Shown: positions 8,637 through 34,479 of the stretch, in pieces | Position numbering within the stretch: the first letter of the stretch is position 1 | How the letters are laid out: each line of letters begins with the position of its first letter | Assembly: GCA_030592355.1 (NCBI GenBank) | Contig: JAUVJE010000002.1 | Coordinates: forward strand, 1 to 34,746 | DNA length: 34,746 nucleotides | From: Clostridia bacterium | Lineage (GTDB): Bacteria; Bacillota; Clostridia; DUPQ01 | Direction of reading: 5' to 3' | The notes under the pieces: model-generated | What the model saw: only the letters and a program-made list of their open reading frames with translations | What the model was told of the DNA's origin: nothing | Databases searched by the model: none | Made by a program: the position numbers and the translations under genes

Positions 8637-8644
8637 TGACACTT

Positions 8645-13066: not shown

Positions 13067-13651
13067 ATGAAACGTGATGCGGTCGTACTGGCGGCTGGAT
13101 TTTCGAGCCGTACAGACACTAATAAAATGACACTGGTAATAGAAAATAAAACAATTCTTGCGAGAGTTATTGAGACTCTTTCGTCTGTATGCGATGAAAT
13201 CGTGGTAGTGGGCGGACATAATTTTGATTCCATTAAGCAAATAACTGATGATTTCGACAGAGTAAAGCTGGTAAAAAACGAGGCATATCACCTTGGAATG
13301 TTCAGCTCTGTCATATGCGGAACAAGAGAAATGAAAAAAGATTTTTTCCTCATTCCCGGTGACTGCCCGGCCGTCAAAATAACAACGTATCAAAAGCTCT
13401 TAAAAAGCCGGGGGAATTTTATTGTGCCGGTATTTAATAAAAAAGGCGGTCATCCGGTGCTTATAAAAAAAGAATTGATTCCAAAGCTTCTTGACGAACC
13501 GGTTGAATCAAATCTTAAGGCCTTTAGAAATAAATGCAATCCCGAATTTGTTGAAGTAGATGACGAAGGAATCCTGCTGGATATAGATACTCCGGAGGAT
13601 TTTAACTATATAAAGGAAATTGTCGGGAGGAGGAGTCGCAGTGAAAATTGA
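13067..13651 (+). CDS. mocA: Molybdenum cofactor cytidylyltransferase (MobA/MocA-like nucleotidyltransferase)
   Basis: 194 aa. N-terminal AVVLAAGFSSR nucleotide-binding motif, IPGDCP, and the context next to Mo hydroxylases. Confidence 0.7.
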   Translation: MKRDAVVLAAGFSSRTDTNKMTLVIENKTILARVIETLSSVCDEIVVVGGHNFDSIKQITDDFDRVKLVKNEAYHLGMFSSVICGTREMKKDFFLIPGDCPAVKITTYQKLLKSRGNFIVPVFNKKGGHPVLIKKELIPKLLDEPVESNLKAFRNKCNPEFVEVDDEGILLDIDTPEDFNYIKEIVGRRSRSEN

Positions 13652-14435
13652 TTCATATCGAAGGGTTGGATCCATAGAAGAAGCTTATGAGCTGCTGACG
13701 GAAAAATCCGGTGCAGCGATTATCGGCGGAGGAGCATGGCTGAAACTTATGCCAAAGACAATAGATACTGCAATAGATTTGTCAGATTTGGGGTTGGATA
13801 AAGTAACCGGGTTAGAAAATGAATATGAAATTGGTTGTATGGTAAAACTCAGACAGCTTGAAAAATTCACTCCGTTCCAAATGATATTCGACGGCATCCT
13901 GATTCAAAGCGCAGGGTCAATCATGGGTGTTACTGTGAGGAATATCGCGACGGCCGGGGGCACTGTTGCGGGCAAATACGGATTTTCGGATTTGCTGCCC
14001 GTTCTTTTAGCCATGGATGCGGAAGTAGAATTATATAAAAGAGGCAGATTGAAACTTGAACAGTTTATGGATGAAACCGGTGTTTTAAAGGACATACTTA
14101 CTCGTATATATATTAGAAAAACCGAGGGACGCGGATGGTTTTATACGATGAAAAATACAGCTATCGATTTTCCTATCCTTAACGCCGCAATTACTTCTTC
14201 GCAAAAGGGATGCAGGATTGTAATAGGCGCCAGACCCTACAAGGCTGCATTGGCAAAAAAAGCGATGCAATTTATCGACAGAATTGAAAAACCGGGGGAA
14301 GTAGAAATAATTGAGGCCGCTAACATTGCTGCCGGCGAACTGAAATTTGGCAGCAACCAAAGAGGGTCTTCGGACTACAGGAGAGAACTTTGCATCACAT
14401 TTGTTAAGCGGGGGCTCAGGAAGGTGCTGTTATGA
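13641..14435 (+). CDS. Mo-hydroxylase set 1, FAD-binding (medium) subunit
   Basis: GTG start at 13641 behind GGAGGAGG. AAIIGGGAWL FAD_binding_5-type motif. CoxM/XdhB-like size (264 aa). Confidence 0.75.
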   Translation: MKIDSYRRVGSIEEAYELLTEKSGAAIIGGGAWLKLMPKTIDTAIDLSDLGLDKVTGLENEYEIGCMVKLRQLEKFTPFQMIFDGILIQSAGSIMGVTVRNIATAGGTVAGKYGFSDLLPVLLAMDAEVELYKRGRLKLEQFMDETGVLKDILTRIYIRKTEGRGWFYTMKNTAIDFPILNAAITSSQKGCRIVIGARPYKAALAKKAMQFIDRIEKPGEVEIIEAANIAAGELKFGSNQRGSSDYRRELCITFVKRGLRKVLL

Positions 14436-14881
14436 AAATTAAAATTAAAATAAACGGAACCATAAAAACAATTAACGTGAAAGCTGATGAATACCTTGTG
14501 GATACTCTGAGAAACAATGGGTGTGTTAGTGTGAGAAGAGGATGCGACACCACCTCATGCGGGATTTGCACGGTACTTCTTGACGGAGCGCCGGTGGCCT
14601 CATGCAGCTATCTTTCATGCAGGGCTGACAGTCATGAGGTGACGACCGTTGAAGGTATTCAGGAAGAAGCTGCACTAATAGCAGATTTCTTCGGGCATGA
14701 AGGAGCTGACCAATGCGGATATTGCAATCCATCCATGGCACTCACATTGTATGCGATGAAACGGGAACTTAAAAATCCTGATGATGATGAAATACGCGCC
14801 TACCTGGTAGGCAATCTTTGCAGATGCTCGGGATATGTCGCCCAGCACAGGGCAATCAGGGCTTATCTGGAGGTGGAATAA
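14432..14881 (+). CDS. Mo-hydroxylase set 1, [2Fe-2S] (small) subunit
   Basis: 149 aa. Both Cys clusters are present (CDTTSCGICTV...C and CGYCNP...CRCSGY). ATGA overlap with the FAD subunit. Confidence 0.85.
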   Translation: MKIKIKINGTIKTINVKADEYLVDTLRNNGCVSVRRGCDTTSCGICTVLLDGAPVASCSYLSCRADSHEVTTVEGIQEEAALIADFFGHEGADQCGYCNPSMALTLYAMKRELKNPDDDEIRAYLVGNLCRCSGYVAQHRAIRAYLEVE

Positions 14882-17193
14882 TGAAATATGTAAATAAAAC
14901 CATACCGTCCGTTGACGGAAAAGGTCTTATGATGGGCAAACCCGGTTATACAGATGACCTTGCGGAACCCAATTCATTGATCGTAAGAGTTCTCAGAAGT
15001 CCGCATCCTTTTGCAAAAATCATAAAAATAAATAAAGAAAAAGCATTGACGCTTGAAGGGGTCGAATGTGTTCTTACACATAAGGATTTTAAAAGAATTG
15101 CCGTAACCAGGGCGGGACAGGGATATCCGGAACCCTCGCCTCATGATAAGTTTATATTGGACGACCATGTACGCCATATAGGAGACGAAGTAGCTGCCGT
15201 AGCGGCATGTGATAAGGAAACCGCGAAAAAAGCCCTGGAACTTATTGATGTTGAATACGAAGTTCTGGAACCGGTGCTTGATTTCGAAAAAGCGTATGAA
15301 AACAAAAATGTAATACACAGCGAACCGGAAATACACGAGATGTTTCCTATAGGCCTTGAGCCTCTTAAAAATGTAGCAGCATCATATATGATGAATGTGG
15401 GTGATGTGGATAAGACCCTTGAGGAATGTGATGTTATATTGGACACCCGGTTCTACACACAGGCTCAGGCCCATGTGATGATGGAACCTCATACCGCTAA
15501 TGCAAGAATCGACTATCAGGGAAGACTGGTGATGTATTCATCTACGCAAACCCCTATACATGTAAGAAGAATACTCTCCCATGCACTGGAATATCCGCTT
15601 AGTAAAATTCGTGTAATTAAACCGAGAATCGGAGGGGGATACGGAGGCAAACAATGTCTTCACGGCGAATTTTTAGTAGCTGCTGTCACTCTGAGAACCG
15701 GGAAACCTTCAAAAATAGTTTATACACGAAAGGAAGTTTTTGAATCCACATTTTCACGGCACCCAATGCGTTTTGATATAAAATTAGGGGCAATGAACGA
15801 CGGTACGCTAAAAGGCATAGATGTGGATGTTCTTTCTGACACAGGCGCTTACGGCGAACATGCCCTTACCGTATTTATGGTCGCCGGTTCAAAAGTATTC
15901 CCTTTGTATAATAAAGTGGATTCAGTTCGTTTCGGAGGGAAAGTTGTTTATACAAATCACACACCTGCAGGGGCTTTCAGAGGGTATGGAGCCATTCAGG
16001 GCAATTATGCATTAGAATCCGCAATTGATATGCTCTGCGATAAGATGAATATCGACCCCGTGGAATTCCGGATGAAAAATATGATAAAGGAAGGGGAGAC
16101 ATCGCCGATATTTGCGATAATGGGAGAGGGCACTGAAGGCACTGCGATGAACATGGAATCCTGCAAACTGGATTATTGCGTAAAAAGAGGTCTTGAAATT
16201 ATAAATTGGAAAGACAAATATCCTAAAAAGACAACTGAAGATGGAAAAGTAAGGGGAGTGGGAATGGCCATAGCAATGCAGGGCTCGGGGATACCGTATA
16301 TTGATATGGGCTCGGCCATGATAAAATTAAACGATGACGGGTTTTTCAATCTGATGGTAGGAGCCACGGAACTTGGACAGGGCAGCGATACGATTCTTGG
16401 ACAAATTGCCGCGGAAAGCCTTGGTGTCAATCCCGATAAAATAGTTATTTATTCATCTGACTCAGACTTGACCCCATTTGATACCGGTGCTTATGCCTCA
16501 AGTACTACTTATGTGTCCGGCAATGCCGTAAAACTTACCGCTGACAGGATGAAAGAAATGATTATAGAAGAAGGAGCGAAAGCGTTGGGAACACGTTTAG
16601 CTGAAACTGATTTTGATGGTAAAATAATTAAATCAGGCGATAAAGAAATGACCCTTGCAGAATTATCAAACCGTCTTTATTACAATGAAGATCAGAAACA
16701 ACTGATGGCCTGCGAGTCTTATGTAGGCACAAAATCCCCACCGCCGTTTATGGCAGGTTTTGCAGAGGTAGAGATTGATCCTGAAACAGGTAAAGTTGAT
16801 ATTGTTGATTACGCTGCAGTTGTGGATTGCGGGACTACAATTAACCCAGCCCTTGCCAGGGTACAGGTGGAAGGCGGATTGGTACAGGGCATCGGCATGA
16901 CTATGTACGAGGATGTGGTGTATACGTCAAATGGAGGCATGGTTACAAATAACATGATGAACTATCGTATTCCCACAAGAAAAGAAATAACTGATATGCA
17001 TGTGGAATTCGCCGACAGTTTTGAACCGTCGGGACCATATGGAGCAAAGTCGGTGGGTGAAATCGGGATAGATACACCGCCGGCAGCTATTACAAATGCA
17101 ATTTACAACGCAGTTGGAGTAAGAATCCAGGAACTTCCGGTAACGCCGGAAAAAGTGTTTATGGGAATATTGAAGCAAAAGGATAAGGAGTAA
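14881..17193 (+). CDS. Mo-hydroxylase set 1, molybdopterin-binding (large) subunit, xanthine dehydrogenase family
   Basis: Start at the ATG at 14881 (1-nt overlap with the upstream TAA). 770 aa. Motifs RIGGGYGGKQ, AGAFRGYGAIQ and GAKSVGEIG. Confidence 0.85.
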   Translation: MKYVNKTIPSVDGKGLMMGKPGYTDDLAEPNSLIVRVLRSPHPFAKIIKINKEKALTLEGVECVLTHKDFKRIAVTRAGQGYPEPSPHDKFILDDHVRHIGDEVAAVAACDKETAKKALELIDVEYEVLEPVLDFEKAYENKNVIHSEPEIHEMFPIGLEPLKNVAASYMMNVGDVDKTLEECDVILDTRFYTQAQAHVMMEPHTANARIDYQGRLVMYSSTQTPIHVRRILSHALEYPLSKIRVIKPRIGGGYGGKQCLHGEFLVAAVTLRTGKPSKIVYTRKEVFESTFSRHPMRFDIKLGAMNDGTLKGIDVDVLSDTGAYGEHALTVFMVAGSKVFPLYNKVDSVRFGGKVVYTNHTPAGAFRGYGAIQGNYALESAIDMLCDKMNIDPVEFRMKNMIKEGETSPIFAIMGEGTEGTAMNMESCKLDYCVKRGLEIINWKDKYPKKTTEDGKVRGVGMAIAMQGSGIPYIDMGSAMIKLNDDGFFNLMVGATELGQGSDTILGQIAAESLGVNPDKIVIYSSDSDLTPFDTGAYASSTTYVSGNAVKLTADRMKEMIIEEGAKALGTRLAETDFDGKIIKSGDKEMTLAELSNRLYYNEDQKQLMACESYVGTKSPPPFMAGFAEVEIDPETGKVDIVDYAAVVDCGTTINPALARVQVEGGLVQGIGMTMYEDVVYTSNGGMVTNNMMNYRIPTRKEITDMHVEFADSFEPSGPYGAKSVGEIGIDTPPAAITNAIYNAVGVRIQELPVTPEKVFMGILKQKDKE

Positions 17194-17197
17194 AAAA

Positions 17198-17824
17198 ATG
17201 GACAGAAAGAAAATATTAAAACTAGTTTCGCAAATTATATTTTTCGGAGCTTTATGGGGAATTACAGAAGCCACGCTTGGATATTTATTGCATTTCCTTC
17301 CACCAACAGTTGCGGGGATAATCATGTTTCCCATAGCGGCATTCATTCTTATTAAATCATATAAAGCGACAGGATCAAGAGCCGCGCTGATTTATATTGG
17401 TTTCGTAGCGGCAGGAATAAAAGCAGTTGACTTTTTACTACCGGGAATGATTGTATTCAAAACTATAAATCCTATGATTTCAATAGTCCTTGAAGCGCTG
17501 GTAGTTGCCGCTGCCTATCCGATGCTGAGCAATTTAAAAGCAGGATGGAAACTTTCAGGCGGTATTGCGGCAAGTGTGGGATGGCGTACGGGTTACATAA
17601 TATATATGGTCATTCAATATTTTATTACAGGGTTTGTATCAAGCTATATCTCAACACCGTTTTTCACAATTAATTTTATGCTGTTGAATGGTGTTCTAAG
17701 TGGAGTCCTGCTATTTGGAATGTTGATGCTGGAATCAAAAGTAAAGCTTAAAGCAATGAAATTCAGACCTGTTTATGCCCTTGCAGCGCTGGTGCTGGCC
17801 ATGGGCCTGCAACTGGTTATTTAA
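17198..17824 (+). CDS. Integral membrane protein, ~6-7 TM, unknown function
   Basis: 208 aa, almost entirely hydrophobic segments. AAGGAG RBS. Starts 5 nt after the Mo-subunit stop. No family motif recognised. Confidence 0.6.
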   Translation: MDRKKILKLVSQIIFFGALWGITEATLGYLLHFLPPTVAGIIMFPIAAFILIKSYKATGSRAALIYIGFVAAGIKAVDFLLPGMIVFKTINPMISIVLEALVVAAAYPMLSNLKAGWKLSGGIAASVGWRTGYIIYMVIQYFITGFVSSYISTPFFTINFMLLNGVLSGVLLFGMLMLESKVKLKAMKFRPVYALAALVLAMGLQLVI

Positions 17825-17830
17825 ATAAGC

Positions 17831-17856
17831 AAAAATTGTCCCTTTGGACAATTTTT
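17831..17856 (+). terminator. Hairpin after the membrane-protein gene (weak terminator or processing site)
   Basis: AAAAATTGTCC cttt GGACAATTTTT. The A5/T5 tracts form the base of the stem. An alternative pairing exists between TTGTCCC (17836-42) and GGGACAA (17858-64). Confidence 0.45.
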
Positions 17857-17885
17857 GGGGACAAATTTGTACTTGAGGAATATAA

Positions 17886-18707
17886 ATGAATATTTATAGT
17901 GAAATAAGCAAGCATATGGATTCGGGAACCGCATGTATATTAGCGACTGTAGTGGGAAAAAGCGGTGAAGGACCTGTAGAAGTCGGCAAGAAAATGATTG
18001 TGGGCTCAGACGGTATTGCGAAAGGAACGGTAGGCGGCGGTGCTCTTGAATTCTACGCCCGCGAACGCTGTAAAGAACTATTGGCAGACCGTAAAAATTT
18101 GCTGGAAAAATACTTGTTGAACGAAGGCGAAGTTATAAAAGATGCAAAGACTTTGCCTATGGTATGCGGTGGGGAGGTTTCAATTTTCTATGAGTATATC
18201 GGGCCGGATGCCTGCATATACATTTTCGGGGGAGGACACGTTGGACAGGCAACGGTTAATGTTTTAAAAACTATGAATTTCCACATAACCGTGATAGATG
18301 AAAGAAAAGCGGTTTATAATGCATTTAAAGGTGCAGACCGTAAGGTGAATATGTCTTTCACAGAGTTTATTGAGAGCGAAGGCATAGAGGAAGGAAGCTT
18401 TATCATAGTATGCACACCTTCGCATAAGCATGACTACAATGTGATTTATAAAGTCATTGAACTAGGACTTAAGCCCCAATATATCGGAATGTTGTGTTCA
18501 CCATCCAAATTAAATGATTTTTTGAGCAGGATTTACAAAAAATTCGGAAAGAATGCGGACCTTTCAAATCTCTATTCGCCGATTGGCCTTGATATAGGAG
18601 GAGGTTCCCCGGAGGAAATCGCCATATCTATAGTTTCAGAAATTCTGGTTGTAAACAATGGTAAAACCGGACATAAACACATGAGGGTCGGAGACTTCAA
18701 ATGGTAA
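17886..18707 (+). CDS. xdhC: XdhC/CoxI-family Mo-hydroxylase maturation protein
   Basis: 273 aa. N-terminal XdhC_CoxI pattern (ATVVGKSGEGPVEVGKKMIV...GTVGGGALE) and the Rossmann part IFGGGHVGQA. Confidence 0.8.
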   Translation: MNIYSEISKHMDSGTACILATVVGKSGEGPVEVGKKMIVGSDGIAKGTVGGGALEFYARERCKELLADRKNLLEKYLLNEGEVIKDAKTLPMVCGGEVSIFYEYIGPDACIYIFGGGHVGQATVNVLKTMNFHITVIDERKAVYNAFKGADRKVNMSFTEFIESEGIEEGSFIIVCTPSHKHDYNVIYKVIELGLKPQYIGMLCSPSKLNDFLSRIYKKFGKNADLSNLYSPIGLDIGGGSPEEIAISIVSEILVVNNGKTGHKHMRVGDFKW

Positions 18708-19189
18708 CGATTATAACCGGGCCGTTAAATTCAGGGAAAACCACCAGAGTGGTGGAAGAATATAGGAACGTGGCCAGGGGAGATGGTTTTGTTTCCTTAA
18801 AAAGAATGAACGGTAAAGTTGTCGAAGGTTTTGACCTGATGAGATTGTCTACCGGTGAAAAGAGACCTTTTATAAGGAGAATCGGCAGCGAACCTAAGAA
18901 CTGGGTGGAAAACTGCACGTTGGGACCTTATACATTTTCAGATGATGCCGTCGGGTGGGCTGCAATGCAGATTTCCGGATTTATAAGCAACGGTATTTCC
19001 CCTGTATATCTCGATGAAGTGGGCATCATGGAATTAGCCGGTAAATGTTTTTATAAGATTGTTAAAAAGATAGTAAACTCCGGCACGAACGCTTATATAT
19101 CGGTCAGAGACGAATCCCTTGAAGCCGTAATTGAAAAGCTTGAAATTGACGGAGCGAAAATAATCAAGATGGGAGACAGATATGCATGA
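18701..19189 (+). CDS. Small P-loop NTPase (THEP1/DUF2478-like), probable accessory protein
   Basis: 162 aa. Walker A GPLNSGKTT at residues 7-15 and Walker B-like VYLDEVG. 7-nt overlap with xdhC. Confidence 0.55.
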   Translation: MVTIITGPLNSGKTTRVVEEYRNVARGDGFVSLKRMNGKVVEGFDLMRLSTGEKRPFIRRIGSEPKNWVENCTLGPYTFSDDAVGWAAMQISGFISNGISPVYLDEVGIMELAGKCFYKIVKKIVNSGTNAYISVRDESLEAVIEKLEIDGAKIIKMGDRYA

Positions 19190-20477
19190 CCTTGGAATAA
19201 TTGGGGGACAACTGTATATCGAAAGCGAATTTCAAAGAAAGAATCTGTTTGTAAAAAACGGTGCGATTTCCGGTATATCCGACGGTGTTGAAGGCTGCTT
19301 GGAATACTATGATGCATCGGGTAAAAAAATTATCCCGGGACTAATTGATCCTCATGTGCACTTTGCTCTGAATGTAAGCGGCCGCACATCAGCGGACAAC
19401 TTTTTTTCAGGATCTGTCAGCGCCGCCTTTGGAGGAGTAACCACTTTCATCGATTTTTTGGATCCGGTTTCAAAAGCCTTGGATTTACCCGGTGCTTTAA
19501 AAAGGAGAAAAAGCGCTGCAAAAGACAGTGTTGTAAACTATCTTTTTCATGCTACTGCGGCAAATCCGAAGGGCGAAACCGAAAAAATAGCCATGGAGAT
19601 GAAAAACCTGGGACTTCATACTATAAAAATATTCACTACTTATGAAGAATCCGGAAGACGCACTTATGATACCGAAATAAAAGAGTTTCTTGAATTGTCA
19701 AAAAAATATGGATTCATGGTGCTTGCCCATGTGGAAAATGATGACATTGTAGGTATGCATCCGAAACAATTGGTCAGTAATCTTCCCGAAGCACGCAGCG
19801 AAGAAGCTGAAATTACAGAAGCCCTTAAACTGGCGGCAATGGTCCGGGAAACGGGTGGAGAACTATATATGGTTCATACCAGCAGCGGCCGCACAGTGAG
19901 GGAACTGATAAAATGTTTTTCGGGAATAGTCGGAAATAGGTTTCATATTGAAAGCTGTCCCCACTATTTTTCATTTGACGACAGTAAATATGAAAACGAA
20001 GACGGATACCTTTATACTATGATTCCTCCACTGCGAGATTCAAGGGCTGTAAGATTACTGAAAAAATATTCTAATTTTGTCGAAAGCATCGGAACGGATC
20101 ATTGTCCGTATATGGAAAATGAGAAAGCCAGGCAGTGGCTTGATGAAATTCCAATGGGAATTGGATCAATCGAGCACTCCTTTGTCGTAATGCACAGCAT
20201 TCTTGGTAATAAGGCAATAGATAAGATGAGCAGATGCCCGGCGGAAATTTTCGGGTTGTATCCGTGGAAAGGTTTGCTGGCAGTTGGCTCGGATGCTGAC
20301 ATAACGATATACGATGATAATGAAAATTATAGAATCCATGGAAACCATTCTGCGTGTGATTATACGGTTTATGAGGGATTTGACGTAAAAGTTAAAATTG
20401 AATCCACAATATGCGGCGGGGAATTTGTTATAAGAAAAGGTGAATTTAAAAGGGGGAACGGAAAATGTTTGCTCTGA
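19182..20477 (+). CDS. Cyclic amidohydrolase (hydantoinase/dihydropyrimidinase-like, HyuA-like)
   Basis: 431 aa. Metal-ligand set GLIDPHVHF, HTIKIFTTY (carbamylated-Lys position), LAHVEND, MVHTSS and GTDHCPY. Confidence 0.75.
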   Translation: MHDLGIIGGQLYIESEFQRKNLFVKNGAISGISDGVEGCLEYYDASGKKIIPGLIDPHVHFALNVSGRTSADNFFSGSVSAAFGGVTTFIDFLDPVSKALDLPGALKRRKSAAKDSVVNYLFHATAANPKGETEKIAMEMKNLGLHTIKIFTTYEESGRRTYDTEIKEFLELSKKYGFMVLAHVENDDIVGMHPKQLVSNLPEARSEEAEITEALKLAAMVRETGGELYMVHTSSGRTVRELIKCFSGIVGNRFHIESCPHYFSFDDSKYENEDGYLYTMIPPLRDSRAVRLLKKYSNFVESIGTDHCPYMENEKARQWLDEIPMGIGSIEHSFVVMHSILGNKAIDKMSRCPAEIFGLYPWKGLLAVGSDADITIYDDNENYRIHGNHSACDYTVYEGFDVKVKIESTICGGEFVIRKGEFKRGNGKCLL

Positions 20478-21742
20478 CAAATGTAAGAATTTTCGATTTG
20501 CAGAATTATTATGACAACGGATACATTATTTTTAATGAGAAAATAAAGGAAGTCGGCGACATGGCTGGCTTTAGGGACAATGGTTATGAAATTATAGATG
20601 GAACGGGACATCTTGCGATGCCGTCCCTGACAGTTGCTCATACTCACATATATTCAACATTCGCAAGGGGAATGGTTATTCCGTTCAATCCTGCGAATTT
20701 TCAGGAAATTCTGGAGCAGTTATGGTGGAAAATGGATTCACACCTTACCGGGGAAGATATATATATGAGTGGAATCGTCAGTGGAGTGGATTATGCGAAA
20801 AACGGTGTGACTACAGTTATTGATCATCACGCGGGCAAGAAGATTAAAGGGTCGTTGACGCTGCTTAAAAAAGCTGTTTGCGAAAAGGTCGGTTTAAGGG
20901 GTTCTTTTTGTTTCGAAACCAGCGACCGATTTGATGTAGACGCATGCATAAGTGAAAACAATAACAGCGCAGACATATTCGGGCTTCATGCATCTATGAC
21001 GCTATCTGACGACACTTTGATTAAAGTTAAGGATTCTTTAGGGGACAAACCGGTGCATATACATGCGGCTGAAAGCTGGATGGATCAGGAAAACTGCCTG
21101 TCTTATCACGGAGAACGGGTGATAGAAAGGTTGGACCGTCATGGTTTGCTTAATAAAAATTCCATACTGGCTCATTGCATTCATATAAATGAAGACGAGG
21201 CGGAAATCATTGAGAAGAACGGCTGTTGGGTAGCTTTGAATATTCAGTCGAATATGAATAATGCAGTCGGTTTGCCGGATTACAAAATGCTTAAAGAAAA
21301 GGGAATAAAATGTCTTATTGGCAACGACGGCATGTCAATGGGAATAACCGGTGAATGGATGTCCCTGTATCTTGCAATGAAACACAGATATTTATCCCAT
21401 ACTGCATTTGACATGTCGGATTTGCTCACGGTTATTGATAACAATAATAAATATGTAAACGAAACAATGGATATCAGTATCGGAAGGATTAAACCGGGAT
21501 ACGATGCAGATTTGCTGTCTATTGAATACGAACCGCCTACGCCCATAGGTAAAGACAATGCATTCGGTCATATTTTATTTGGTTTGAGCAGGGCGTTCAC
21601 ACCGGAACATGTATGGTGCAAAGGGAAGCATATTGTCAGACATTATCATGTAAGTGATGAGTTAGAGAAAAAATATAAAGAGGCGAAGAAGACTGCGGAA
21701 AAGCTTTGGGAAAGGATTAAGAGCGATAGTTATAATGGATAA
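20465..21742 (+). CDS. ssnA: SsnA-type aminohydrolase (amidohydrolase superfamily, chlorohydrolase/deaminase branch)
   Basis: 425 aa. Motifs HTHIYSTFARGM, VHIHAAES, AHCIH and GNDGMS. 13-nt overlap with the upstream gene. Confidence 0.7.
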   Translation: MFALTNVRIFDLQNYYDNGYIIFNEKIKEVGDMAGFRDNGYEIIDGTGHLAMPSLTVAHTHIYSTFARGMVIPFNPANFQEILEQLWWKMDSHLTGEDIYMSGIVSGVDYAKNGVTTVIDHHAGKKIKGSLTLLKKAVCEKVGLRGSFCFETSDRFDVDACISENNNSADIFGLHASMTLSDDTLIKVKDSLGDKPVHIHAAESWMDQENCLSYHGERVIERLDRHGLLNKNSILAHCIHINEDEAEIIEKNGCWVALNIQSNMNNAVGLPDYKMLKEKGIKCLIGNDGMSMGITGEWMSLYLAMKHRYLSHTAFDMSDLLTVIDNNNKYVNETMDISIGRIKPGYDADLLSIEYEPPTPIGKDNAFGHILFGLSRAFTPEHVWCKGKHIVRHYHVSDELEKKYKEAKKTAEKLWERIKSDSYNG

Positions 21743-26827: not shown

Positions 26828-28537
26828 ATGAATACTATGCAGCTGGCAAAAGTCGCACGAGGCGATAAAAAAGCAGATTTAGTTCTGAAAAATTGTACTA
26901 TTGTTAATGTTTTCAACCACAAGGTGGAGCACGGTGATATTGCAATTACCGACGGTATCATCGCCGGCATCGGGAAATATTCAGGGAGAAAGGAAATTGA
27001 CCTTGAAGGCGGATTTGTCTGCCCCGGATTTATAGACGGCCATGTGCATATTGAATCTTCTATGCTTACACCCCCGCAATTTGCAAAAACGGTTATTCCC
27101 AAGGGCACAACCACAGTAATAGCGGACCCCCATGAAATTGCAAACGTTTGCGGTATAGACGGTATTGAATTTATGCTTGACAGCAGCGAAAAGCTTCCTT
27201 TGGATGTATTTATTATGCTTCCTTCCTGCGTTCCGTCAACAGACTATGAAAATTCCGGCGCGGTTCTTTCCGCGGAGGACTTAGCTCCGTTAATGGACCA
27301 CGAGCGCGTTATTGGACTTGGAGAAATGATGAATTATCCCGGTGTAATCAATGGTATTAAGAAAATCCATGACAAGTTGAATATCGCCGGGGGACGGATG
27401 ATTGACGGACATGCTCCGGGAGTTACCGGTAAAGAACTGAACGCCTATGTTGCATCGGGTATAAAGACAGACCATGAATGCACGGCAGTAGACGAAATGG
27501 AAGAAAAACTGAGACGGGGAATGTATATTATTATCAGGGAAGGTTCTGCAACAAGAAACCTGGATACTCTGATTGCGGGTGTCAGCAAAGACAATCTGAG
27601 AAGAATGCTTTTTTGCACCGACGATAAACATCCCAAGAGTATAAAGAACGAAGGTCATATCAATTACAATGTTAAAAGAGCCGTAAGCCATGGGGTTGAC
27701 GCCATTGACGCGATTTTAATGGCAACACTGAATACCGCAGAATGCTACGGACTTCGGGACAGGGGCGCAATAGCACCTGGCTACATAGCAGATATTCTGG
27801 TTTTGGATAATCTTAAAAACTTTTCAGTTATGCAGGTTTTCAAAAAAGGAAAGCTGGTAGCTGCAAACGGAGAAGCAAAATTCGGAGCGCGTGCAGTGGC
27901 TGACCAACGTGTGTTAAATACAGTCGTACTCAATGACAATATGAAAATTAATCTTGATTTACACCTGAAATCGGATGTAGTTAAAGTAATCCAGATAATT
28001 GAAGACAATATAATAACTAAAAAAGTTATCAGAAAAGTAGATGTAGATGACGGATATTATAAAAACAATCCAAAGCTGGACATACTGAAACTGGCTGTTA
28101 TAGAAAGGCATAAGAAAACCGGTAATATCGGACTTGGCCTGGTAGAAGGCTACGGATTGAAAAATGGCGCAGTAGCCCTGACAATTGCCCATGACTCTCA
28201 CAATATTATAGTTGTCGGTGACAATGACAGGGATATGTTGGAAGCGGTCAGGGAATTACAGAAATGCGAGGGTGGAATAACCATATGCAGCGGCGGAAAG
28301 GTTATGGGAAGCCTGACTCTGGAGGTCGGTGGATTGATGACTGATTCATCAATTGAATCAGTGGAAGATAAAGTTGATGAGTTGGTGGGAATTGCGGAGA
28401 AAATGGGCATTAACAAAGGATTGGATCCATTTTTAACACTATCCTTCCTCTCGCTTCCAGTAATACCCGAACTTAAACTAACCGACCGAGGCCTTTTTGA
28501 CGTAACAACCTTCGGCTTTGTGGGCACGGAAGAGTAG
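26828..28537 (+). CDS. ade: Adenine deaminase
   Basis: 569 aa, the canonical length. PGFIDGHVHIESSML metal motif. GGAGGAAATAG RBS. Confidence 0.85.
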   Translation: MNTMQLAKVARGDKKADLVLKNCTIVNVFNHKVEHGDIAITDGIIAGIGKYSGRKEIDLEGGFVCPGFIDGHVHIESSMLTPPQFAKTVIPKGTTTVIADPHEIANVCGIDGIEFMLDSSEKLPLDVFIMLPSCVPSTDYENSGAVLSAEDLAPLMDHERVIGLGEMMNYPGVINGIKKIHDKLNIAGGRMIDGHAPGVTGKELNAYVASGIKTDHECTAVDEMEEKLRRGMYIIIREGSATRNLDTLIAGVSKDNLRRMLFCTDDKHPKSIKNEGHINYNVKRAVSHGVDAIDAILMATLNTAECYGLRDRGAIAPGYIADILVLDNLKNFSVMQVFKKGKLVAANGEAKFGARAVADQRVLNTVVLNDNMKINLDLHLKSDVVKVIQIIEDNIITKKVIRKVDVDDGYYKNNPKLDILKLAVIERHKKTGNIGLGLVEGYGLKNGAVALTIAHDSHNIIVVGDNDRDMLEAVRELQKCEGGITICSGGKVMGSLTLEVGGLMTDSSIESVEDKVDELVGIAEKMGINKGLDPFLTLSFLSLPVIPELKLTDRGLFDVTTFGFVGTEE

Positions 28538-28624: not shown

Positions 28625-28650
28625 TTATAAGTAAATTGAGGTCAGGGTAT

Positions 28651-29883
28651 ATGGTATATATAAAAGGGTATGAGTGCACAATTTGCAATTCACAGTATGA
28701 AGTGAATGAAAAACTTCATACCTGTCCTAAGTGCGGCGAAAAAGGCATATTGGAAATCATTTACGACTATCAGAAAATAAAATCAAAAATGACAAAGTCA
28801 TATTTTGCAAACTGCACGGATAATTCTATGTGGCGATACCATTATACAATGTCTGTAGAGCCTGGATTAAGAAGCAAGTATCTTAGAGTTGGCGGAACTC
28901 CGTTATATAAGGCAAAACATCTTTGCGATATTATGGGATTTAAGAAAATTTATATAAAAGACGAAGGTGTGAATCCCACCGCATCATTGAAAGACCGGGC
29001 TTCAGCCGTGGCGGTGGCCGATGCTGTTGCACTTAAGGCTGCTATAATAAGCTGCAGTTCCACGGGGAATGCAGCATCGTCGCTTGCGGGGAATGCAGCG
29101 AGAATTGGAATGAATACAGTAATTTTTGTGCCTGAAAGAACACCGGAAGGAAAGCTTTCGCAATTGTTGATTTTCGGAGCAAAAGTTATAGTGGTGAAGG
29201 GCAGTTACAGAGATGCTTTTGAGATGTCGCAAAAGGCGATAAAAAAATGGGGATGGTACAATAGGAATGCGGCAATCAATCCGCATCTGGTGGAAGGGAA
29301 AAAAACAGTAGCCCTTGAAATTGCTGAGCAGATGGATTGGAAAGTGCCTGATTGGGTTGCAGTATCTGTAGGCGACGGCTGCACGATTGCGGGAGTTTAT
29401 AAAGGCTTTCACGATCTTTTACAGCTGGGAATAATCGACAGGATACCAAAGCTCCTGGGCGTGCAGTCAGACGGCTGCAGTCCCTTTGTCAACGCATATG
29501 TGAAAAAACAGAAAATAGAACCAACTGAAGAAAATACCATCGCAGACAGTATTTCCGTAGGAATTCCCAGAAATCCGGTTAAAGCAATAAGGGCGGTTGA
29601 AAAATCAGGAGGTTCCTGGATAGCGGTTTCCGACCACAATATATTAAAAGCCATGAAAACACTTGGAAGCAACGAAGGAATTTTCACCGAACCGGCGGGT
29701 GCAGCAAGCCTTGAAGGAGCCGAAGAAGCTTTGAAACTTGGGATAATAAAACCCGATGAAACCATATGTATCATTGCAACAGGTAATGGTCTTAAAGATA
29801 CAAAAAATGCCTTGGAAATTGCAGGCAAACCGATATATATTGAACCCGATATGAATGAATTAATAAAAATAATAGGGAAATAA
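28651..29883 (+). CDS. Threonine-synthase-like fold-type II PLP enzyme with N-terminal zinc ribbon
   Basis: Start at the ATG at 28651. CTIC...CPKC zinc-ribbon. PLP-lysine motif NPTASLKDR. Glycine-rich SVGDGCTIAG loop. Confidence 0.7.
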   Translation: MVYIKGYECTICNSQYEVNEKLHTCPKCGEKGILEIIYDYQKIKSKMTKSYFANCTDNSMWRYHYTMSVEPGLRSKYLRVGGTPLYKAKHLCDIMGFKKIYIKDEGVNPTASLKDRASAVAVADAVALKAAIISCSSTGNAASSLAGNAARIGMNTVIFVPERTPEGKLSQLLIFGAKVIVVKGSYRDAFEMSQKAIKKWGWYNRNAAINPHLVEGKKTVALEIAEQMDWKVPDWVAVSVGDGCTIAGVYKGFHDLLQLGIIDRIPKLLGVQSDGCSPFVNAYVKKQKIEPTEENTIADSISVGIPRNPVKAIRAVEKSGGSWIAVSDHNILKAMKTLGSNEGIFTEPAGAASLEGAEEALKLGIIKPDETICIIATGNGLKDTKNALEIAGKPIYIEPDMNELIKIIGK

Positions 29884-29907
29884 CCCTTTAATACAGGAGG
29901 ACAAATA

Positions 29908-31275
29908 ATGAACGGCATACCCTTTGGACCAACTTATGATGAAATGCTTGAGAGGAATCTTATAGATCCCGAAATCAAAGGGAAAGCAGAGAAAGCAATA
30001 AGCGATGAATTAGATCCTATAAATCTTTTTAACATCACTTGGAAAGATACAGATAATAATGTCAGAAAGATAGTGCTTCCACCGGAACTTACCGGTATTG
30101 ACGCCAATATTGTAGTGCTTCTCGGTAAAGATTTTCCTTCCGGCTCACACAAAGTGGGTCCTGCATATTCCACTCTCATAGAAGGCTGCGTGGATGGTGA
30201 CATACTTCCGGGACAACACACGATACTTGGGCCTTCAACGGGAAATTTCGGCATAGGCGTATCATATATATGCAACTTAATGGGGTATGATGCAATAGTA
30301 ATCATGCCTGACAATATGAGCAAAGAACGTTATGAGAGAATTGAGAGATACGGAGCTGAACTTGATCTTACGCCGGGAACGGAGTCTGATGTTATATTAA
30401 CCTTGCAAAGAACATATGAATTGGCGAAAGATCCCAAAATGCGGTCGCTGGCGCAGTTTGAATTGCTGCCCAACTATCGCTTTCACAGACATGTAACGGG
30501 AAACTCCGCCATAGAGGCGGTTGAAGGCATAGGTAATGGCAGAATAGCATGTTTTGCATGTGCTCCGGGCTCCGCCGGCACCATTGCCGCCGGAGACCAG
30601 ATAAAAGAAACCTTTCCTGAAGTCAGGATTGCCGCCCTTGAGCCTTACGAGTGCTCTACACTTACAAACGGAGGCCGTGGGCAGCACCGGATAGAGGGGA
30701 TAGGCGACAAGATGTGCACGCTGATACACAATGTTTTAAACACTGATTTTGTAGTACTTATACGCGATGATGATTGTGTAAGGGGACTTAAGGTTATACA
30801 CGATGGTGCCGATATTTTGGCTGAATCAGGAATTGATATGGAAACGATTTTGTATATGAAGGATCTTTTCGGTGTATCGGGTATCTGCAACATCATAGGT
30901 TCCATTAAGATGGCAAAACACCTGCACCTGGGCCCGGGAGACAATGTTGTTACTGTAGCAACCGACGGCTATGACAGATATGAATCCGTCATTGAAGATC
31001 TTGACCGCCGTTATCTGGAAGTAGAAGATTTTGTACTGAGACGTTGGAAAAAGGATGTGTTCGACAATGCTGATGAGAGCAACATAATGGATTTCCGCCA
31101 AAGCGATAAAAAGGAACAGCTTTTTCAACAGAAAGAAAAGGACTGGATCCCGTTCGGATATACAAAAGAGTACATGGATTCTATGAAAGATCAGAATTTC
31201 TGGGATGCTGAATACGCAAAAGTAAAATACTATGATAAAAAAATCAAAGAGATGAGGAGGCAGCCCAATGATTGA
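29908..31275 (+). CDS. Fold-type II PLP-dependent enzyme (Trp-synthase-beta/cysteine-synthase superfamily), specificity unknown
   Basis: 455 aa. [13 protein letters not shown] (TrpB-like GSHK lysine motif), [12 protein letters not shown], and a long C-terminal extension. AGGAGG RBS. Confidence 0.6.
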
Positions 31276-32488
31276 TTTTAAGGCTATCCTTGAAAAAGCA
31301 GAATCGTACAGGGTTGAAATGTCTGCATTTCTCCGCGACATGATAAGGCTGCCCAGTGAAAGTTGCAATGAAAAGGAAGTTGTTCTTCGCATAAAAGAGG
31401 AAATGGAAAAAGTTGGTTTTGATAAAATTGAAATTGATCCAATGGGTAATATTCTGGGATATATAGGCCACGGCAAACACCTTATCGCAATGGATGCCCA
31501 TATTGATACTGTAGGGGTAGGTGAAAGAGATCTGTGGAACTACGACCCCTTTGAAGGATATGAAGATGATGAAATAATAATCGGCAGGGGAACCAGCGAC
31601 CAGGAAGGCGGAATGGCCTCGATGGTATATGCCGGTAAAATTATAAAAGACCTTGGACTGGAAGACGATTATACGTTATTGGTCACAGGAACGGTGCAGG
31701 AAGAAGACTGCGACGGCCTGTGCTGGCAGTATATTATAGAAAAAGACAAGATAAGGCCTGAGTTCGTAGTGATAACTGAACCTACCTCGCTCAATATTTA
31801 CCGGGGACACAGGGGCAGGATGGAGATAAAAATATCCACCTACGGTATAAGCTGCCATGGTTCGGCTCCTGAAAGAGGCGACAATGCCATTTACAAAATG
31901 GCTCCGATTATAAATGAGCTAAAAGAGCTGCACGGCAATCTGAAACATGATACTTTTCTTGGAAAAGGAAGCCTGACGGTATCTGAAGTATTTTTCAGCT
32001 CGCCTTCAAGATGCGCAGTTGCAGACGGGTGCTCCATATCTGTAGACCGCAGGCTGACAGCAGGGGAAACATATGAATATGCATTGGAGCAGATTAGAAA
32101 TCTGGATTCTGTAAAAGCTGCAGGAGCAACCGTGGAAATGTATGACTATAAGCGTCCGGCCTATACAGGGCTGGTGTATCCAACCAAGAGCTACTTCCCG
32201 ACATGGGTGCTTGAAGAAAAACACCCTGCATGCAAAACGCTTGTAGATACATATAAGGGATTATTTAATAAAAAACCGCTAGTGGACAAATGGACGTTTT
32301 CCACAAATGCAGTTTCAATAATGGGTAGGTTTAAAATACCATGCATAGGTTTCGGTCCCGGTCATGAAGATCAGGCCCATGCCCCAAACGAGCGTACATG
32401 GAAAGATGAACTGGTAAAAGCCGCCGCAATGTACGCGGCAATACCATTGGTATATATTCAAACCATCATCCACACATCCCAAGGATGA
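31268..32488 (+). CDS. ygeY: YgeY-family M20 metallohydrolase
   Basis: 406 aa. M20 ligand motifs [20 protein letters not shown] and VQEEDCDG. The N-terminus resembles YgeY proteins. 8-nt overlap with the upstream gene. Confidence 0.75.
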
Positions 32489-32501: not shown

Positions 32502-32538
32502 TGATTACTAATGAAATATATTATTTAGGAGAGGTAAT

Positions 32539-33522
32539 ATGAAAACTGAATTTAAGGGGAAACATTTTATATCATTGCAAGACTGGACAAAAGAAGAGCT
32601 GGACACGCTGCTTGAGGTGTCCTATGATTTGAAAAAGAAATTCGCAAATGGAGTGCAGACACCCTATTTGCCATATAAAACCATGTTCCTGATGTTCTTT
32701 GAACAGTCAACCAGGACAAGGAATTCAATGGAAGCGGGAATTGCACAGCTGGGCGGCCATGGTAATTTTCTTGATGTCAGTACAATGCAGATATCCCATG
32801 GGGAGTCTGCAAAAGACACGGCGATAATACTTTCCAGTTACGGGCACGGCATAGCCTGTAGGAATTGTTTCTGGGAAGTTGGAAATAAATACCTTCGGGA
32901 AATGGCGGAATATTCGACTGTTCCCGTTATGAGTCTTCAGTGCGACCTGTATCATCCCATGCAGGGTATCGCCGACCTAATGACCATACAGGAAAAAACC
33001 AAAACAACCAGAAATCTGAAGGTTTCTATAATTTGGGCATATGCAACCAGCCACAAAAAACCGATTTCGGTTCCGCTGACACAGGCGCTTCTGTTTCCAA
33101 GATACGGAATGGATGTCACTCTGGCATATCCAAAAGGATATGACCTTCCGGATTGGGCGATTGCACAGGCAAGGGAAAACGCAGAAAAGAACAATGGTAA
33201 ATTTAGGATAACCCACAATATGGAAGAGGCTTACATAGATGCAGATGTAGTTATTCCTAAAAATTGGGGTAGTTGGGTAAATAACCAGAGCAGCGAAGTT
33301 GTTGATGATTTGTTGGAATCTTACAAAGGTTGGAAATGTACTGAAGAAATGATGGCCCTGGCAGCTAAAAATGTAATGTACATGCATGCGCTGCCTGCAG
33401 ACAGGGGCAATGAGGTGGAAGATTCCGTAATAGACGGACCGCATTCAATAGTTTATGACGAAGCGGAAAACCGGCTGCACACCGCAAAGGCTGTAATGAT
33501 GCTTACAATGGGTGATAAGTAA
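32539..33522 (+). CDS. ygeW: YgeW-like carbamoyltransferase (ATCase/OTCase superfamily)
   Basis: 327 aa. Motifs STRTR, LQCDLYHPMQGIADL, WAYATSHKKPISVP, YGMDVTLAYPKGYDLP and HALPADRGNEV. The middle motifs match my recollection of E. coli YgeW. Confidence 0.75.
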   Translation: MKTEFKGKHFISLQDWTKEELDTLLEVSYDLKKKFANGVQTPYLPYKTMFLMFFEQSTRTRNSMEAGIAQLGGHGNFLDVSTMQISHGESAKDTAIILSSYGHGIACRNCFWEVGNKYLREMAEYSTVPVMSLQCDLYHPMQGIADLMTIQEKTKTTRNLKVSIIWAYATSHKKPISVPLTQALLFPRYGMDVTLAYPKGYDLPDWAIAQARENAEKNNGKFRITHNMEEAYIDADVVIPKNWGSWVNNQSSEVVDDLLESYKGWKCTEEMMALAAKNVMYMHALPADRGNEVEDSVIDGPHSIVYDEAENRLHTAKAVMMLTMGDK

Positions 33523-33531
33523 AGGAGAGAT

Positions 33532-34479
33532 ATGGGAAAATTGGCCGTAATAGCCATAGGAGGCAACTCCCTTATAAAGGACAAACAGCATATGCAGGTC
33601 GACGATCAGTATGATGCAATCTGCGAAACGGTGAAATACATTACTGATATAATCGAAGAGGGTTATGAAGTTGTAATAACCCACGGCAATGGTCCCCAGG
33701 TGGGATTCATCATGCGCAGGTCTGAAATAGCTGAAGAAGTAGAACATATGCATCCTGTTCCTCTTGTCAGTTGTGATGCGGACACACAGGGTGCCCTTGG
33801 TTATCAGATTCAGCAGGCATTCCATAATGAATTTACGAAACGGAGCATCAAAAAGAATGCGGTAACAATTGTAACGCAGGTAGAAGTTGATGAAAATGAT
33901 CCCGCATTTAAGAACCCCGCCAAACCTATTGGCTTATTTCATAATGACGCACAGGTGAAACGGCTTAGAAAAGACCATCCCGATTGGGTGATGACTATGG
34001 ATTCAGGCAGGGGATACAGGCGGGTAGTACCGTCACCCATGCCAAAGAAAATAGTTGAAATAGACGCCATTGAGAATCTTGTTAATTCCGGATTCACGGT
34101 AATAGCAGTTGGTGGCGGCGGTATTCCCGTGGTTGTTGATAAAAACAACGGTTACAGGGGAGTGAATGCAGTAATCGATAAAGATCATGCATCAGGAATG
34201 CTAGCGACAAAACTTGGAGCGGATGTTTTTATTATATTAACAGCGGTTGAAAATGTATGTATCAATTTCGGAAAGCCGAATGAAAAAAGAATCAAAGCGA
34301 CTGATATAAATAGTATTAAAGAACTAAGGGAACAAGGCCACTTTGCACCCGGAAGTATGCTTCCCAAGATAAATGCTGCCATGACTTATCTTGAAAACGG
34401 CGGAGAAAAAGCCATAATAACATCACCTGAAAATCTGCTTAAAGCAGTACGCGGTGAAGCAGGCACAATTATAATATGA
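33532..34479 (+). CDS. arcC: Carbamate kinase
   Basis: 315 aa. AIGGNSL and ITHGNGPQVG motifs. AAAGGAGAG RBS. Confidence 0.9.
   Translation: MGKLAVIAIGGNSLIKDKQHMQVDDQYDAICETVKYITDIIEEGYEVVITHGNGPQVGFIMRRSEIAEEVEHMHPVPLVSCDADTQGALGYQIQQAFHNEFTKRSIKKNAVTIVTQVEVDENDPAFKNPAKPIGLFHNDAQVKRLRKDHPDWVMTMDSGRGYRRVVPSPMPKKIVEIDAIENLVNSGFTVIAVGGGGIPVVVDKNNGYRGVNAVIDKDHASGMLATKLGADVFIILTAVENVCINFGKPNEKRIKATDINSIKELREQGHFAPGSMLPKINAAMTYLENGGEKAIITSPENLLKAVRGEAGTIII

Follow-up and report, generated by a model that had tools for sequence, protein, structure and literature searches.

How does an anaerobic purine pathway end when its gene cluster holds no gene for YgeX, the enzyme that makes pyruvate from 2,3-diaminopropionate in the published route? 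The question is raised by a DNA stretch of 34,746 nucleotides (nt) from a Clostridia bacterium (GenBank assembly GCA_030592355.1), which is the whole of contig JAUVJE010000002.1 and is referred to here as the window. Positions 13067 to 34479 carry 20 open reading frames (ORFs), all on the plus strand. With a probability that we put at roughly 0.72, this region is one purine-catabolic cluster for a modified form of the anaerobic reductive uric acid (2,8-dioxopurine) pathway, in which a pair of pyridoxal phosphate (PLP) enzymes may replace YgeX. The cluster is a member of the known pathway, in a layout that is not described in the literature searched. The PLP pair in the place of YgeX is ranked as the main lead that it offers, and a trio of candidate cofactor maturation genes as the second.

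In the route published in 2025, urate is converted to 2,8-dioxopurine by XdhD (DOPDH) and YgfK dearomatises this product; SsnA and HyuA then open the rings to give 2,3-diureidopropionate, which is decarbamoylated by YgeW with carbamate kinase (yielding ATP) and by YgeY, and YgeX converts 2,3-diaminopropionate to pyruvate (Li et al. 2025, PMC12507026; Liu et al. 2025, bioRxiv 10.1101/2025.04.24.650524). The suggestion of an initial annotation of this DNA that part of the chemistry may be undescribed was overtaken by this work.

Families were assigned with NCBIfam and Pfam profile scans of 35 ORFs of the window, and with tblastn and identity comparisons against the E. coli K-12 region. Related loci, denoted below by L and a number, were collected by a scan with the 455-aa PLP enzyme of the window (PALP455), taking one genome per species. 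At least 587 related loci were found; counts refer to the best 80 of them (PALP455 identity 73–88%), and presence counts to the 51 of those 80 that are 15 kb or longer. The best 80 stem from Clostridia, Vallitaleaceae, Gemmiger formicilis, Moorella, Desulfitobacterium, Syntrophomonadaceae and many Izemoplasmatales.

No YgeX was detected in the window. The diaminopropionate-lyase models gave 55.5 vs 276 for the ThrC-like member of the pair and 22.7 vs 532 for PALP455, and tblastn searches of the window with E. coli YgfK, YgeX, XanQ/UacT/GhxQ and YqeC found nothing beyond a 23% match to YgeX. These searches agree with the initial annotation, in which YgfK, YgeX, an NCS2 permease, a long YqeB and YqeC were reported as lacking from the window. 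Such canonical genes might have stood immediately outside the cluster, but they were not seen in the flanks of its closest relative (L083, a 2.45-Mb contig of a metagenome-assembled genome) or of the isolate Vallitalea okinawensis (L089), where unrelated genes were found and no ygfK, ygeX or permease. A true YgeX lies within 10 kb in only 3 of the 51 long loci, whereas the ThrC-like enzyme is present in 49, a carbamoyltransferase in 45, YgeY in 43 and UacX or YgfK in 38.

The two PLP enzymes are encoded as follows.

28651..29883, plus strand: ThrC-like PLP enzyme with an N-terminal zinc ribbon (TIGR00260, 206 bits; cut-off 167).
29908..31275, plus strand: PALP455, a 455-aa CysK-fold PLP enzyme of the beta-substituted alanine synthase/lyase type (PF00291 only; cysKM 132 bits, cut-off 344).

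Because the E. coli order is ygeW-ygeX-ygeY-hyuA-yqeA, and that of YgeW-type loci among the relatives is hyuA-ygeW-PALP455-yqeA-ThrClike-ygeY, PALP455 fills the place of ygeX. Its stop codon overlaps the ygeY start in the window, and in the related loci it almost always adjoins YgeY and the carbamoyltransferase. The recurrent gene order is HyuA-SsnA-UacX-Mo2-FeS2-FAD2-(HTH)-Ade-ThrClike-PALP455-YgeY-transferase-(kinase). The core of the AlphaFold2 (AF2) model of PALP455 matches CysK and beta-cyanoalanine synthase (template modeling (TM) score for the target about 0.8), with additional N- and C-terminal helices that amount to about 150 extra residues over the CysK/CysM architecture of about 300 aa. 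PALP455 is not a curated CysK or CysM and has the fold alone in common with them. Since the modeled core is that of CysK and the beta-substituted alanine synthases, the substrates should be beta-substituted alanines; diaminopropionate and albizziin are both compounds of this class. The active-site loop of the model (residues 257–269) is of low confidence, and the model makes the fold clear but does not reveal the substrate.

The database names of the pair are all 'threonine synthase' and 'cysteine synthase', which raises the alternative that two housekeeping enzymes sit in the operon by chance. The ThrC-like protein does pass the threonine synthase model, the conservation of PALP455 is very strong, and purine genes are missing from the surroundings of a few loci. 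However, the Arg of the motif NPxR(I/L)EGQKT is replaced by Leu and GNAGN by GDGC(T/S) invariantly in 66 members of the ThrC-like family, whereas both are canonical in five of five solved ThrC structures. From structural work on the Thermus thermophilus threonine synthase, this Arg is said to bind the substrate phosphate. Judged from these residues, the ThrC-like protein is probably not a threonine synthase. PALP455 falls far below the cysKM cut-off and carries its additional residues, and both genes hold their place in purine clusters of Clostridia, Mycoplasmatota and Marinimicrobia. A chance placement of housekeeping genes is therefore considered highly improbable.

In the proposed pathway, PALP455, with or without the ThrC-like enzyme, would take over the job of YgeX; the beta-amino (or beta-ureido) group would be removed via a PLP-aminoacrylate, and the C3 unit would enter central metabolism. 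This functional replacement is the likeliest role of the pair, at roughly even odds. The ygeX gene adjoins the PLP pair in L016, L038 and L048, whereas Desulfitobacterium sp. Sab5 (L041) is without it; because three loci carry all three genes, the pair is not a strict alternative to YgeX. The two PLP enzymes are not mentioned in the urate-pathway, selenium-trait and reaction-module literature that was searched.

Alternatively, the pair could yield serine: water would displace the beta-substituent of diaminopropionate (or albizziin), a beta-replacement that sets threonine-synthase chemistry apart, and the carbon would then pass to glycine and C1-tetrahydrofolate and not directly to pyruvate. 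The gene neighbourhoods of several relatives are consistent with such an end. A serine hydroxymethyltransferase (SHMT) gene stands directly beside the ThrC-like gene in five loci with three gene orders (L008 8584–9930, L022 7171–8451, L034 9511–10752, L037 7160–8431 and L043 64–1368). A gcvT-H-Pa-Pb set lies 4–5 kb 3' of the cluster in four to five Izemoplasmatales (L011, L030, L031, L032, L033; about 16.5–21 kb), and gcvH-lplA-lipA lies just 5' of mocA in V. okinawensis (L089 3328–5290). In Syntrophomonas (L051 3404–8565), the genes after the pair encode a class-V aminotransferase, a 2-hydroxyacid dehydrogenase, a DUF1015 protein and a YgeV-like sigma-54 regulator. On the other hand, neighbours of this kind occur in only about 11 of the 80 loci and are absent from the window, and some of these loci, being from related lineages, do not count as separate events. 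Housekeeping copies could account for the SHMT and gcv genes, and to our knowledge there is no biochemical precedent for a hydrolytic conversion of diaminopropionate to serine by these families. An end product of serine is thus possible but rather unlikely. We hold with equal reserve the wider proposal that the pair forms an undescribed terminal branch running through PLP-aminoacrylate to serine, glycine and C1 units, which would serve hundreds of environmental Bacillota, Mycoplasmatota and Marinimicrobia in place of YgeX, and that the trio mentioned above is a separate undescribed system of molybdenum (Mo) enzyme maturation.

The preferred reading, replacement of YgeX within the reductive uric acid pathway, further requires candidates for the earlier steps. 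These were assigned by homology to characterised E. coli, C. sporogenes and C. difficile enzymes. The purine-oxidizing and urate-dehydroxylating functions, with subunits that carry flavin adenine dinucleotide (FAD) or [2Fe-2S] clusters and a classical xanthine dehydrogenase (XDH) type among them, were assigned to the following genes.

26828..28537, plus strand: adenine deaminase (TIGR01178, 655 bits; cut-off 472.5).
22822..24912, plus strand: Mo subunit 2 (Mo2), classical XDH type, probable hypoxanthine/xanthine to urate (PucD, XdhA, XdhB and Se_dep_XDH models all about 315 bits).
24905..25378, plus strand: [2Fe-2S] subunit 2 (XdhC_XDHase, 170 bits).
25372..26247, plus strand: FAD subunit 2 (XdhB_XDHase, 149 bits).
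13641..14435, plus strand: FAD subunit 1, YgfM-like (top NCBIfam model TIGR03312 Se_sel_red_FAD; 29% identity to E. coli YgfM).
14432..14881, plus strand: [2Fe-2S] subunit 1 (XdhC_XDHase, 124 bits; glyceraldehyde dehydrogenase gamma, 139 bits).
14881..17193, plus strand: Mo subunit 1 (Mo1), XdhD type, probable urate to 2,8-dioxopurine dehydroxylase (36% identity to E. coli XdhD).

Adenine deaminase would supply hypoxanthine, Mo2 with its FeS2 and FAD2 partners would oxidize hypoxanthine and xanthine to urate, and Mo1 with FeS1 and FAD1 (XdhD-YgfM type) would take the 6-oxo group off urate to give 2,8-dioxopurine. Mo1 contains an insertion otherwise confined to XdhD, including the equivalent of Glu606 (AIMGEGTEG in Mo1, AIGEGKAP in XdhD); according to Li et al. 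(2025, PMC12507026), Glu606 is a residue particular to the active site of XdhD. The insertion is retained in the Mo1 orthologues of three other genomes and is not present in E. coli XdhA, in Mo2 or in the fused 850-aa enzymes of other loci. The closest solved structure to Mo1 is 4-hydroxybenzoyl-CoA reductase, a reductive dehydroxylase, whereas those to Mo2 are bovine XDH/xanthine oxidase. Based on the Mo1 insertion, its YgfM-family FAD partner and the proximity of Mo2 to the bovine structures, urate dehydroxylation by Mo1 and purine oxidation by Mo2 are the probable roles. Mo2, which adjoins ssnA and uacX, was also considered as the candidate urate dehydroxylase and was dropped in favour of Mo1 on the insertion evidence.

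The initial annotation had counted the second Mo hydroxylase, the adenine deaminase and a PreA-like reductase as departures from the characterised layout. All three are known or ordinary. Both types of Mo enzyme occur in E. coli (XdhABC plus XdhD-YgfM), and C. sporogenes likewise has XDH and DOPDH (Liu et al. 2025, bioRxiv 10.1101/2025.04.24.650524). Adenine deaminase is an ordinary feeder enzyme, and the reductase corresponds to UacX, the published replacement of YgfK.

This reductase, which has a dihydroorotate dehydrogenase (DHOD)-like domain for flavin mononucleotide (FMN), and the enzymes that would act after it are listed below.

21735..22808, plus strand: UacX-type reductase, DHOD/PydA-like FMN domain with a 2x[4Fe-4S] tail (PF01180, 105 bits; Fer4 domains).
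20465..21742, plus strand: SsnA-like amidohydrolase (NF005540, 344 bits, cut-off 444; TIGR03314, 319 bits, cut-off about 455; 28.5% identity to E. coli SsnA).
19182..20477, plus strand: HyuA-like cyclic amidohydrolase of the hydantoinase/dihydropyrimidinase family (TIGR02033, 244 bits, cut-off 393; 28% identity to E. coli HyuA).
31268..32488, plus strand: YgeY M20 ureidohydrolase (TIGR03526, 716 bits, cut-off 321.5; 72% identity to E. coli YgeY).

The UacX-type FMN/[4Fe-4S] reductase would dearomatise 2,8-dioxopurine, and the SsnA-like and HyuA-like amidohydrolases would open both rings to give 2,3-diureidopropionate. The start of the reductase gene overlaps the ssnA stop codon, which fits the published operational definition (YgfK/UacX adjoining SsnA). 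A PydA-like (PF01180) enzyme of this kind, UacX, stands in place of YgfK in C. difficile (Li et al. 2025, PMC12507026), and a DHOD-like 'dehydrogenase X1' had been seen in such neighbourhoods by Barba et al. 2013. In Mycoplasmatota bacterium WC30 (L088, CP134495.1), a 1003-aa YgfK (14628–17639) occupies the slot between ssnA and Mo2 that is held by UacX in the window and in Vallitalea; YgfK and UacX are thus swapped in place within otherwise collinear clusters.

The two ureido groups would be removed by different enzymes. One would be phosphorolysed by a short YgeW-like transferase to carbamoyl phosphate, from which carbamate kinase would form ATP, and YgeY would then hydrolyse the other to leave 2,3-diaminopropionate.

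32539..33522, plus strand: short YgeW-like catabolic carbamoyltransferase, 327 aa (below every curated cut-off).
33532..34479, plus strand: carbamate kinase (NF009007, 436 bits, cut-off 266; TIGR00746, 372 bits, cut-off 358; 46% identity to E. coli YqeA).

The carbamoyltransferase scored 255 bits with the ornithine carbamoyltransferase (OTC) model (cut-off 281) and 187 (cut-off 453) and 172 (cut-off 500) with the YgeW models. A true catabolic OTC was ruled out despite the profile score, as the ornithine-binding motifs are replaced (DxxxSMG by KNWGSWV, HCLP by HALP). YgeW-specific stretches are kept in the second-substrate domain: PKNWGSW (PKSWAPY in YgeW), LQCDLYHPMQ (LQCDIDHPTQ), WAYATSHKKPISVP (WAYSPSYGKPLSVP) and WKCTEEMMAL (WHCTEEMMEL). 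Three YgeW insertions are missing, and the protein has 327 aa compared with about 396 aa in full YgeW. The gene had been named ygeW in the initial annotation; it does not encode a curated YgeW, but by its motifs it appears to be a shortened YgeW relative, presumably with a YgeW-like function. In the 51 long loci the short transferase (36) and true YgeW (9) alternate.

In the profile searches, the cut-offs were exceeded by YgeY, carbamate kinase and adenine deaminase; SsnA came out as the top family for ORF 20465 but, like HyuA, MocA and the transferase, stayed below its cut-off. The searches bear out the initial description of a purine/urate cluster of the ygeW-ygeY-hyuA-ssnA-xdh-mocA-carbamate kinase type with an ATP-yielding carbamoyl-phosphate step. 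The same enzymes were examined with regard to another N-heterocycle as the substrate, for example in a reductive pyrimidine route, with the xanthine dehydrogenases acting on another compound. UacX, the HyuA-like enzyme and the M20 hydrolase do parallel PydA, PydB and PydC, and SsnA and HyuA fall below their cut-offs, with only about 28% identity to their E. coli counterparts. In contrast, YgeY shows 72% identity, SsnA is the top family for its ORF, the XdhD-specific insertion is present, adenine deaminase lies in the operon, and YgfK takes the place of UacX in a collinear cluster. In addition, a 160-aa cytidine-deaminase-fold protein, which by eye looks like the Bacillus-type guanine deaminase, adjoins the cluster in 22 Izemoplasmatales loci (e.g., L011 14148–14630, minus strand). 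A substrate other than purines is the least probable of the alternatives considered.

Maturation of the two Mo enzymes would fall to MocA, XdhC, a membrane protein and a small nucleoside triphosphatase (NTPase).

13067..13651, plus strand: MocA-type molybdenum cofactor (Moco) cytidylyltransferase (TIGR03310, 131 bits, cut-off 186; DVU_1551 family, 153 bits; 30% identity to E. coli MocA).
17198..17824, plus strand: 208-aa membrane protein with 7 predicted helices and no known family (no Pfam or NCBIfam match).
17886..18707, plus strand: XdhC-family Moco insertion/maturation factor, short form (PF02625, PF13478; XdhC_rel_AOR, 192 bits; 29% identity to part of E. coli YqeB).
18701..19189, plus strand: small P-loop NTPase of the NTPase_1/THEP1 family (PF03266, 42.8 bits; cut-off 23.9).

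The trio of membrane protein, XdhC and NTPase recurs in several phyla. The membrane protein gave no match in Pfam at E values up to 5 or in NCBIfam; 90 homologues were detected, all named 'hypothetical' except for one partial 'xanthine/uracil permease'. It lies directly 5' of the XdhC-like gene in five of five contexts examined (L083, L084, L086, L088, L089), and NTPase orthologues lie directly 3' of XdhC in L083, L086, L088 and L089. In Marinimicrobia L086, a DUF4213/DUF364 protein (8623–9348) is inserted between the membrane protein and XdhC. The pair of membrane protein and XdhC stands alone in L084 (8001–9567), with no purine genes nearby and with CbiA/ParA-like, Nitro_FeMo-Co and DUF134 genes as neighbours, which hints at a general metal-cofactor role. 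The AF2 model of the membrane protein (predicted local distance difference test score 93.5) has 7 helices, and its top meaningful fold match was 5edl (E 0.48, probability 0.96, TM 0.5), a non-significant likeness to the S component of energy-coupling factor (ECF) transporters, which is a six-helix fold. A part in cofactor supply or maturation is tentatively suggested for this protein. The small NTPase showed no BLAST similarity to E. coli YqeC at 1e-3. In the window, E. coli YqeB matched the short XdhC-like gene only (29%). SelD, which the initial annotation had reported missing, had no match among the 35 scanned ORFs, a result that comes from the family scan and not from a separate selD search. 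The C. sporogenes pathway is dependent on selenium (Liu et al. 2025, bioRxiv 10.1101/2025.04.24.650524). The membrane protein, the small NTPase and the two other PLP enzymes, which the initial annotation had rightly listed as non-canonical content, go beyond the known pathway.

PALP455, and perhaps the ThrC-like enzyme too, might belong with these maturation genes. It would then supply the sulfur or selenium of the Mo=S/Se ligand from (seleno)cysteine or phosphoserine and so cover the functions of NifS-like proteins, SelD, YqeB and YqeC, which were not found in the window. PALP455 adjoins YqeB, a YqeC-MocA fusion and XdhC in L045, L047, L050, L055, L009 and L034; in Marinimicrobia L086, XdhC-NTPase is followed by a relative with 33% identity; and in L053 it lies beside another XDH-family enzyme. 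The absence of selD, yqeB and yqeC matches from the window, together with the selenium dependence in C. sporogenes, points in the same direction. Most loci, however, place PALP455 between Ade/ThrC-like and ygeY, or between ygeW and carbamate kinase, and characterised clusters mature their enzymes without it. Such a role would also leave the absence of YgeX from 40 of the 43 YgeY-containing loci unaccounted for, and we know of no CysK-fold enzyme that sulfurates Moco. A maturation function of PALP455 is consequently regarded as improbable.

Comparison with characterised systems places the cluster within the reductive pathway. In common with the E. coli region (ygeW-ygeX-ygeY-hyuA-yqeA ... mocA-ygfK-ssnA-ygfM-xdhD), the window has an XdhD-type Mo enzyme with a YgfM-like FAD subunit, SsnA-like and HyuA-like amidohydrolases, YgeY, a YgeW-related carbamoyltransferase, carbamate kinase, MocA and a separate XDH. 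It differs in having a UacX-type reductase instead of YgfK, an XdhD split into three subunits, a carbamoyltransferase shorter by 69 residues and all genes on one strand; YgeX, a permease, long YqeB, YqeC and YgeV were not found, and two PLP enzymes, the membrane protein, the NTPase and adenine deaminase are added. The uricolytic cluster of C. difficile shares the PydA-like FMN/Fe-S reductase beside SsnA in place of YgfK, but it has YgeX, its XdhD is without an FAD subunit, and the hydrolase UacY replaces YgeW and YqeA and therefore eliminates the ATP step (Li et al. 2025). In the window, by contrast, carbamoyltransferase and kinase are both retained, and each Mo enzyme has an FAD subunit. The C. 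sporogenes system follows the same logic (XDH, urate 6-dehydroxylase, reductase, two amidohydrolases, ATP from YgeW/carbamate kinase, and YgeY), whereas it uses a fused FeS-Mo XdhAC, YgfK and YgeX and depends on SelD/YqeB/YqeC (Liu et al. 2025); none of these was found in the window.

Phosphorolysis of a ureido compound to carbamoyl phosphate with substrate-level ATP formation is also common to the arginine deiminase module (catabolic OTC plus carbamate kinase); the transferase of the window lacks DxxxSMG and HCLP, and no arginine deiminase is present. The Rabinowitz pathway of purinolytic clostridia (xanthine via formiminoglycine to glycine) is likewise an anaerobic purine fermentation, chiefly of environmental Bacillota, and uses xanthine amidohydrolase, a decarboxylase and formimino-transfer enzymes. 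Rabinowitz-type enzyme families had no match among the 35 scanned ORFs, whereas SsnA, YgeY and the carbamoyltransferase belong to the reductive uric acid pathway.

Several observations weigh against the reading of the region as a purine cluster in which the PLP pair replaces YgeX. The enzyme roles are predictions from sequence, and SsnA, HyuA, MocA and the carbamoyltransferase are below the curated cut-offs with 28–34% identity to the E. coli enzymes, for which reason their substrates could differ. No transporter was identified in the window, and no selD, yqeB or yqeC match was found there, though the characterised enzymes are selenium-dependent. Three loci have YgeX together with both PLP enzymes, PALP455 has the maturation genes YqeB/YqeC/XdhC as neighbours in loci of Moorella type and of Marinimicrobia, and a few PALP455 loci are without purine genes inside 10 kb. 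Finally, the window is one whole contig, and a ygeX gene could be present elsewhere in the genome.

The region has the organisation of a 21-kb operon, and the initial counts of 20 co-directional ORFs, 11 overlaps of 1–13 nt and four gaps of 50 nt or more were all reproduced. Start/stop overlaps were located at 13641 (11 nt), 14432 (4), 14881 (1), 18701 (7), 19182 (8), 20465 (13), 21735 (8), 24905 (8), 25372 (7), 26237 (11) and 31268 (8), and the gaps after 17824 (61 nt), 26773 (54), 28537 (98–113) and 32488 (50). Start codons were picked by upstream Shine-Dalgarno-like sequences, such as GTG at 13641 (after AGGAGG) and ATG at 14881 (after GGAGG) and at 28651. The gene lengths agree with those of independently called genes of L083 (264, 150, 770, 208, 273, 162, 431, 421, 357, 696, 157, 284, 178 and 569 aa), so that no obvious pseudogenes are present in the cluster. 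A near-perfect palindromic hairpin with a 12-bp stem (17830–17857) lies within the 61-nt gap between the membrane protein and xdhC genes and might serve as an attenuator inside the operon or as a site of RNA processing. A candidate regulator and the signals at the left end are as follows.

26237..26773, plus strand: helix-turn-helix (HTH_3) plus cupin regulator, PuuR-like (PF01381, PF07883).
12892..12920, plus strand: terminator-like hairpin that closes the upstream DUF3108 gene and marks the left cluster boundary (13-bp stem, 6 G-C pairs, longest in the scan).
12991..13019, plus strand: promoter-like site 48 nt 5' of mocA (TTGAAA-17-TATAAT, 11/12, the best of the region, by consensus match only).

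The HTH-cupin protein would act as a local regulator. Its orthologues (56–88% identity) occur in 15 of the 80 loci, and the slot between FAD2 and Ade is kept in loci with the full layout. PucR-family regulators were seen 3' of the PLP pair in L052 and L018. An Rfam scan of the window at E values up to 0.1 detected no riboswitch (purine, Moco or xanthine types) and no other RNA family.

The left half of the cluster is the same in L083, V. okinawensis and WC30, and the full layout is also found in V. okinawensis (GCA_002964605.1, contig PQDH01000007.1, about 13.5–48 kb) and Izemoplasmatales. In L083, an additional 387-aa gene with no Pfam family (4557–5720) stands between DUF3108 and mocA, a place taken in the window by about 200 nt of non-coding sequence (12862–13066). 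The genes to the left of the cluster are unrelated: ilvN, ilvC, two of the LeuA family (leuA and cimA-like), DUF3108, an AmmeMemoRadiSam system and a RelE toxin. The AmmeMemoRadiSam system (4588–6932) comprises the radical SAM partner and, ahead of it, a 501-aa protein with matches to both component B and component A. Positions 1–3000 have a G+C content of 0.30, compared with about 0.42 in the remaining window, and contain a methyltransferase, two ORFs without a family match and the RelE/StbE toxin (1929–2225), the start of which overlaps the stop of an upstream 109-aa ORF (1603–1932).

The 2025 pathway work used gut organisms, all of which have YgeX; the layout of the window is a second, very widespread and mostly environmental one (at least 587 loci). 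Its last step is apparently performed by enzymes labelled as threonine synthase and cysteine synthase, and knowing their function would put a large set of wrong annotations right. For the engineering of urate-degrading probiotics, useful natural experiments are offered by the short YgeW-like transferase and by the exchange of UacX and YgfK in one slot. V. okinawensis is a cultured organism that carries both the PLP pair and the maturation trio. Establishing the function of the PLP pair would fill in the end of the pathway in these lineages, among them the DNA-scavenging Izemoplasmatales, and might tell whether purine carbon is passed on as pyruvate or by way of serine and glycine.

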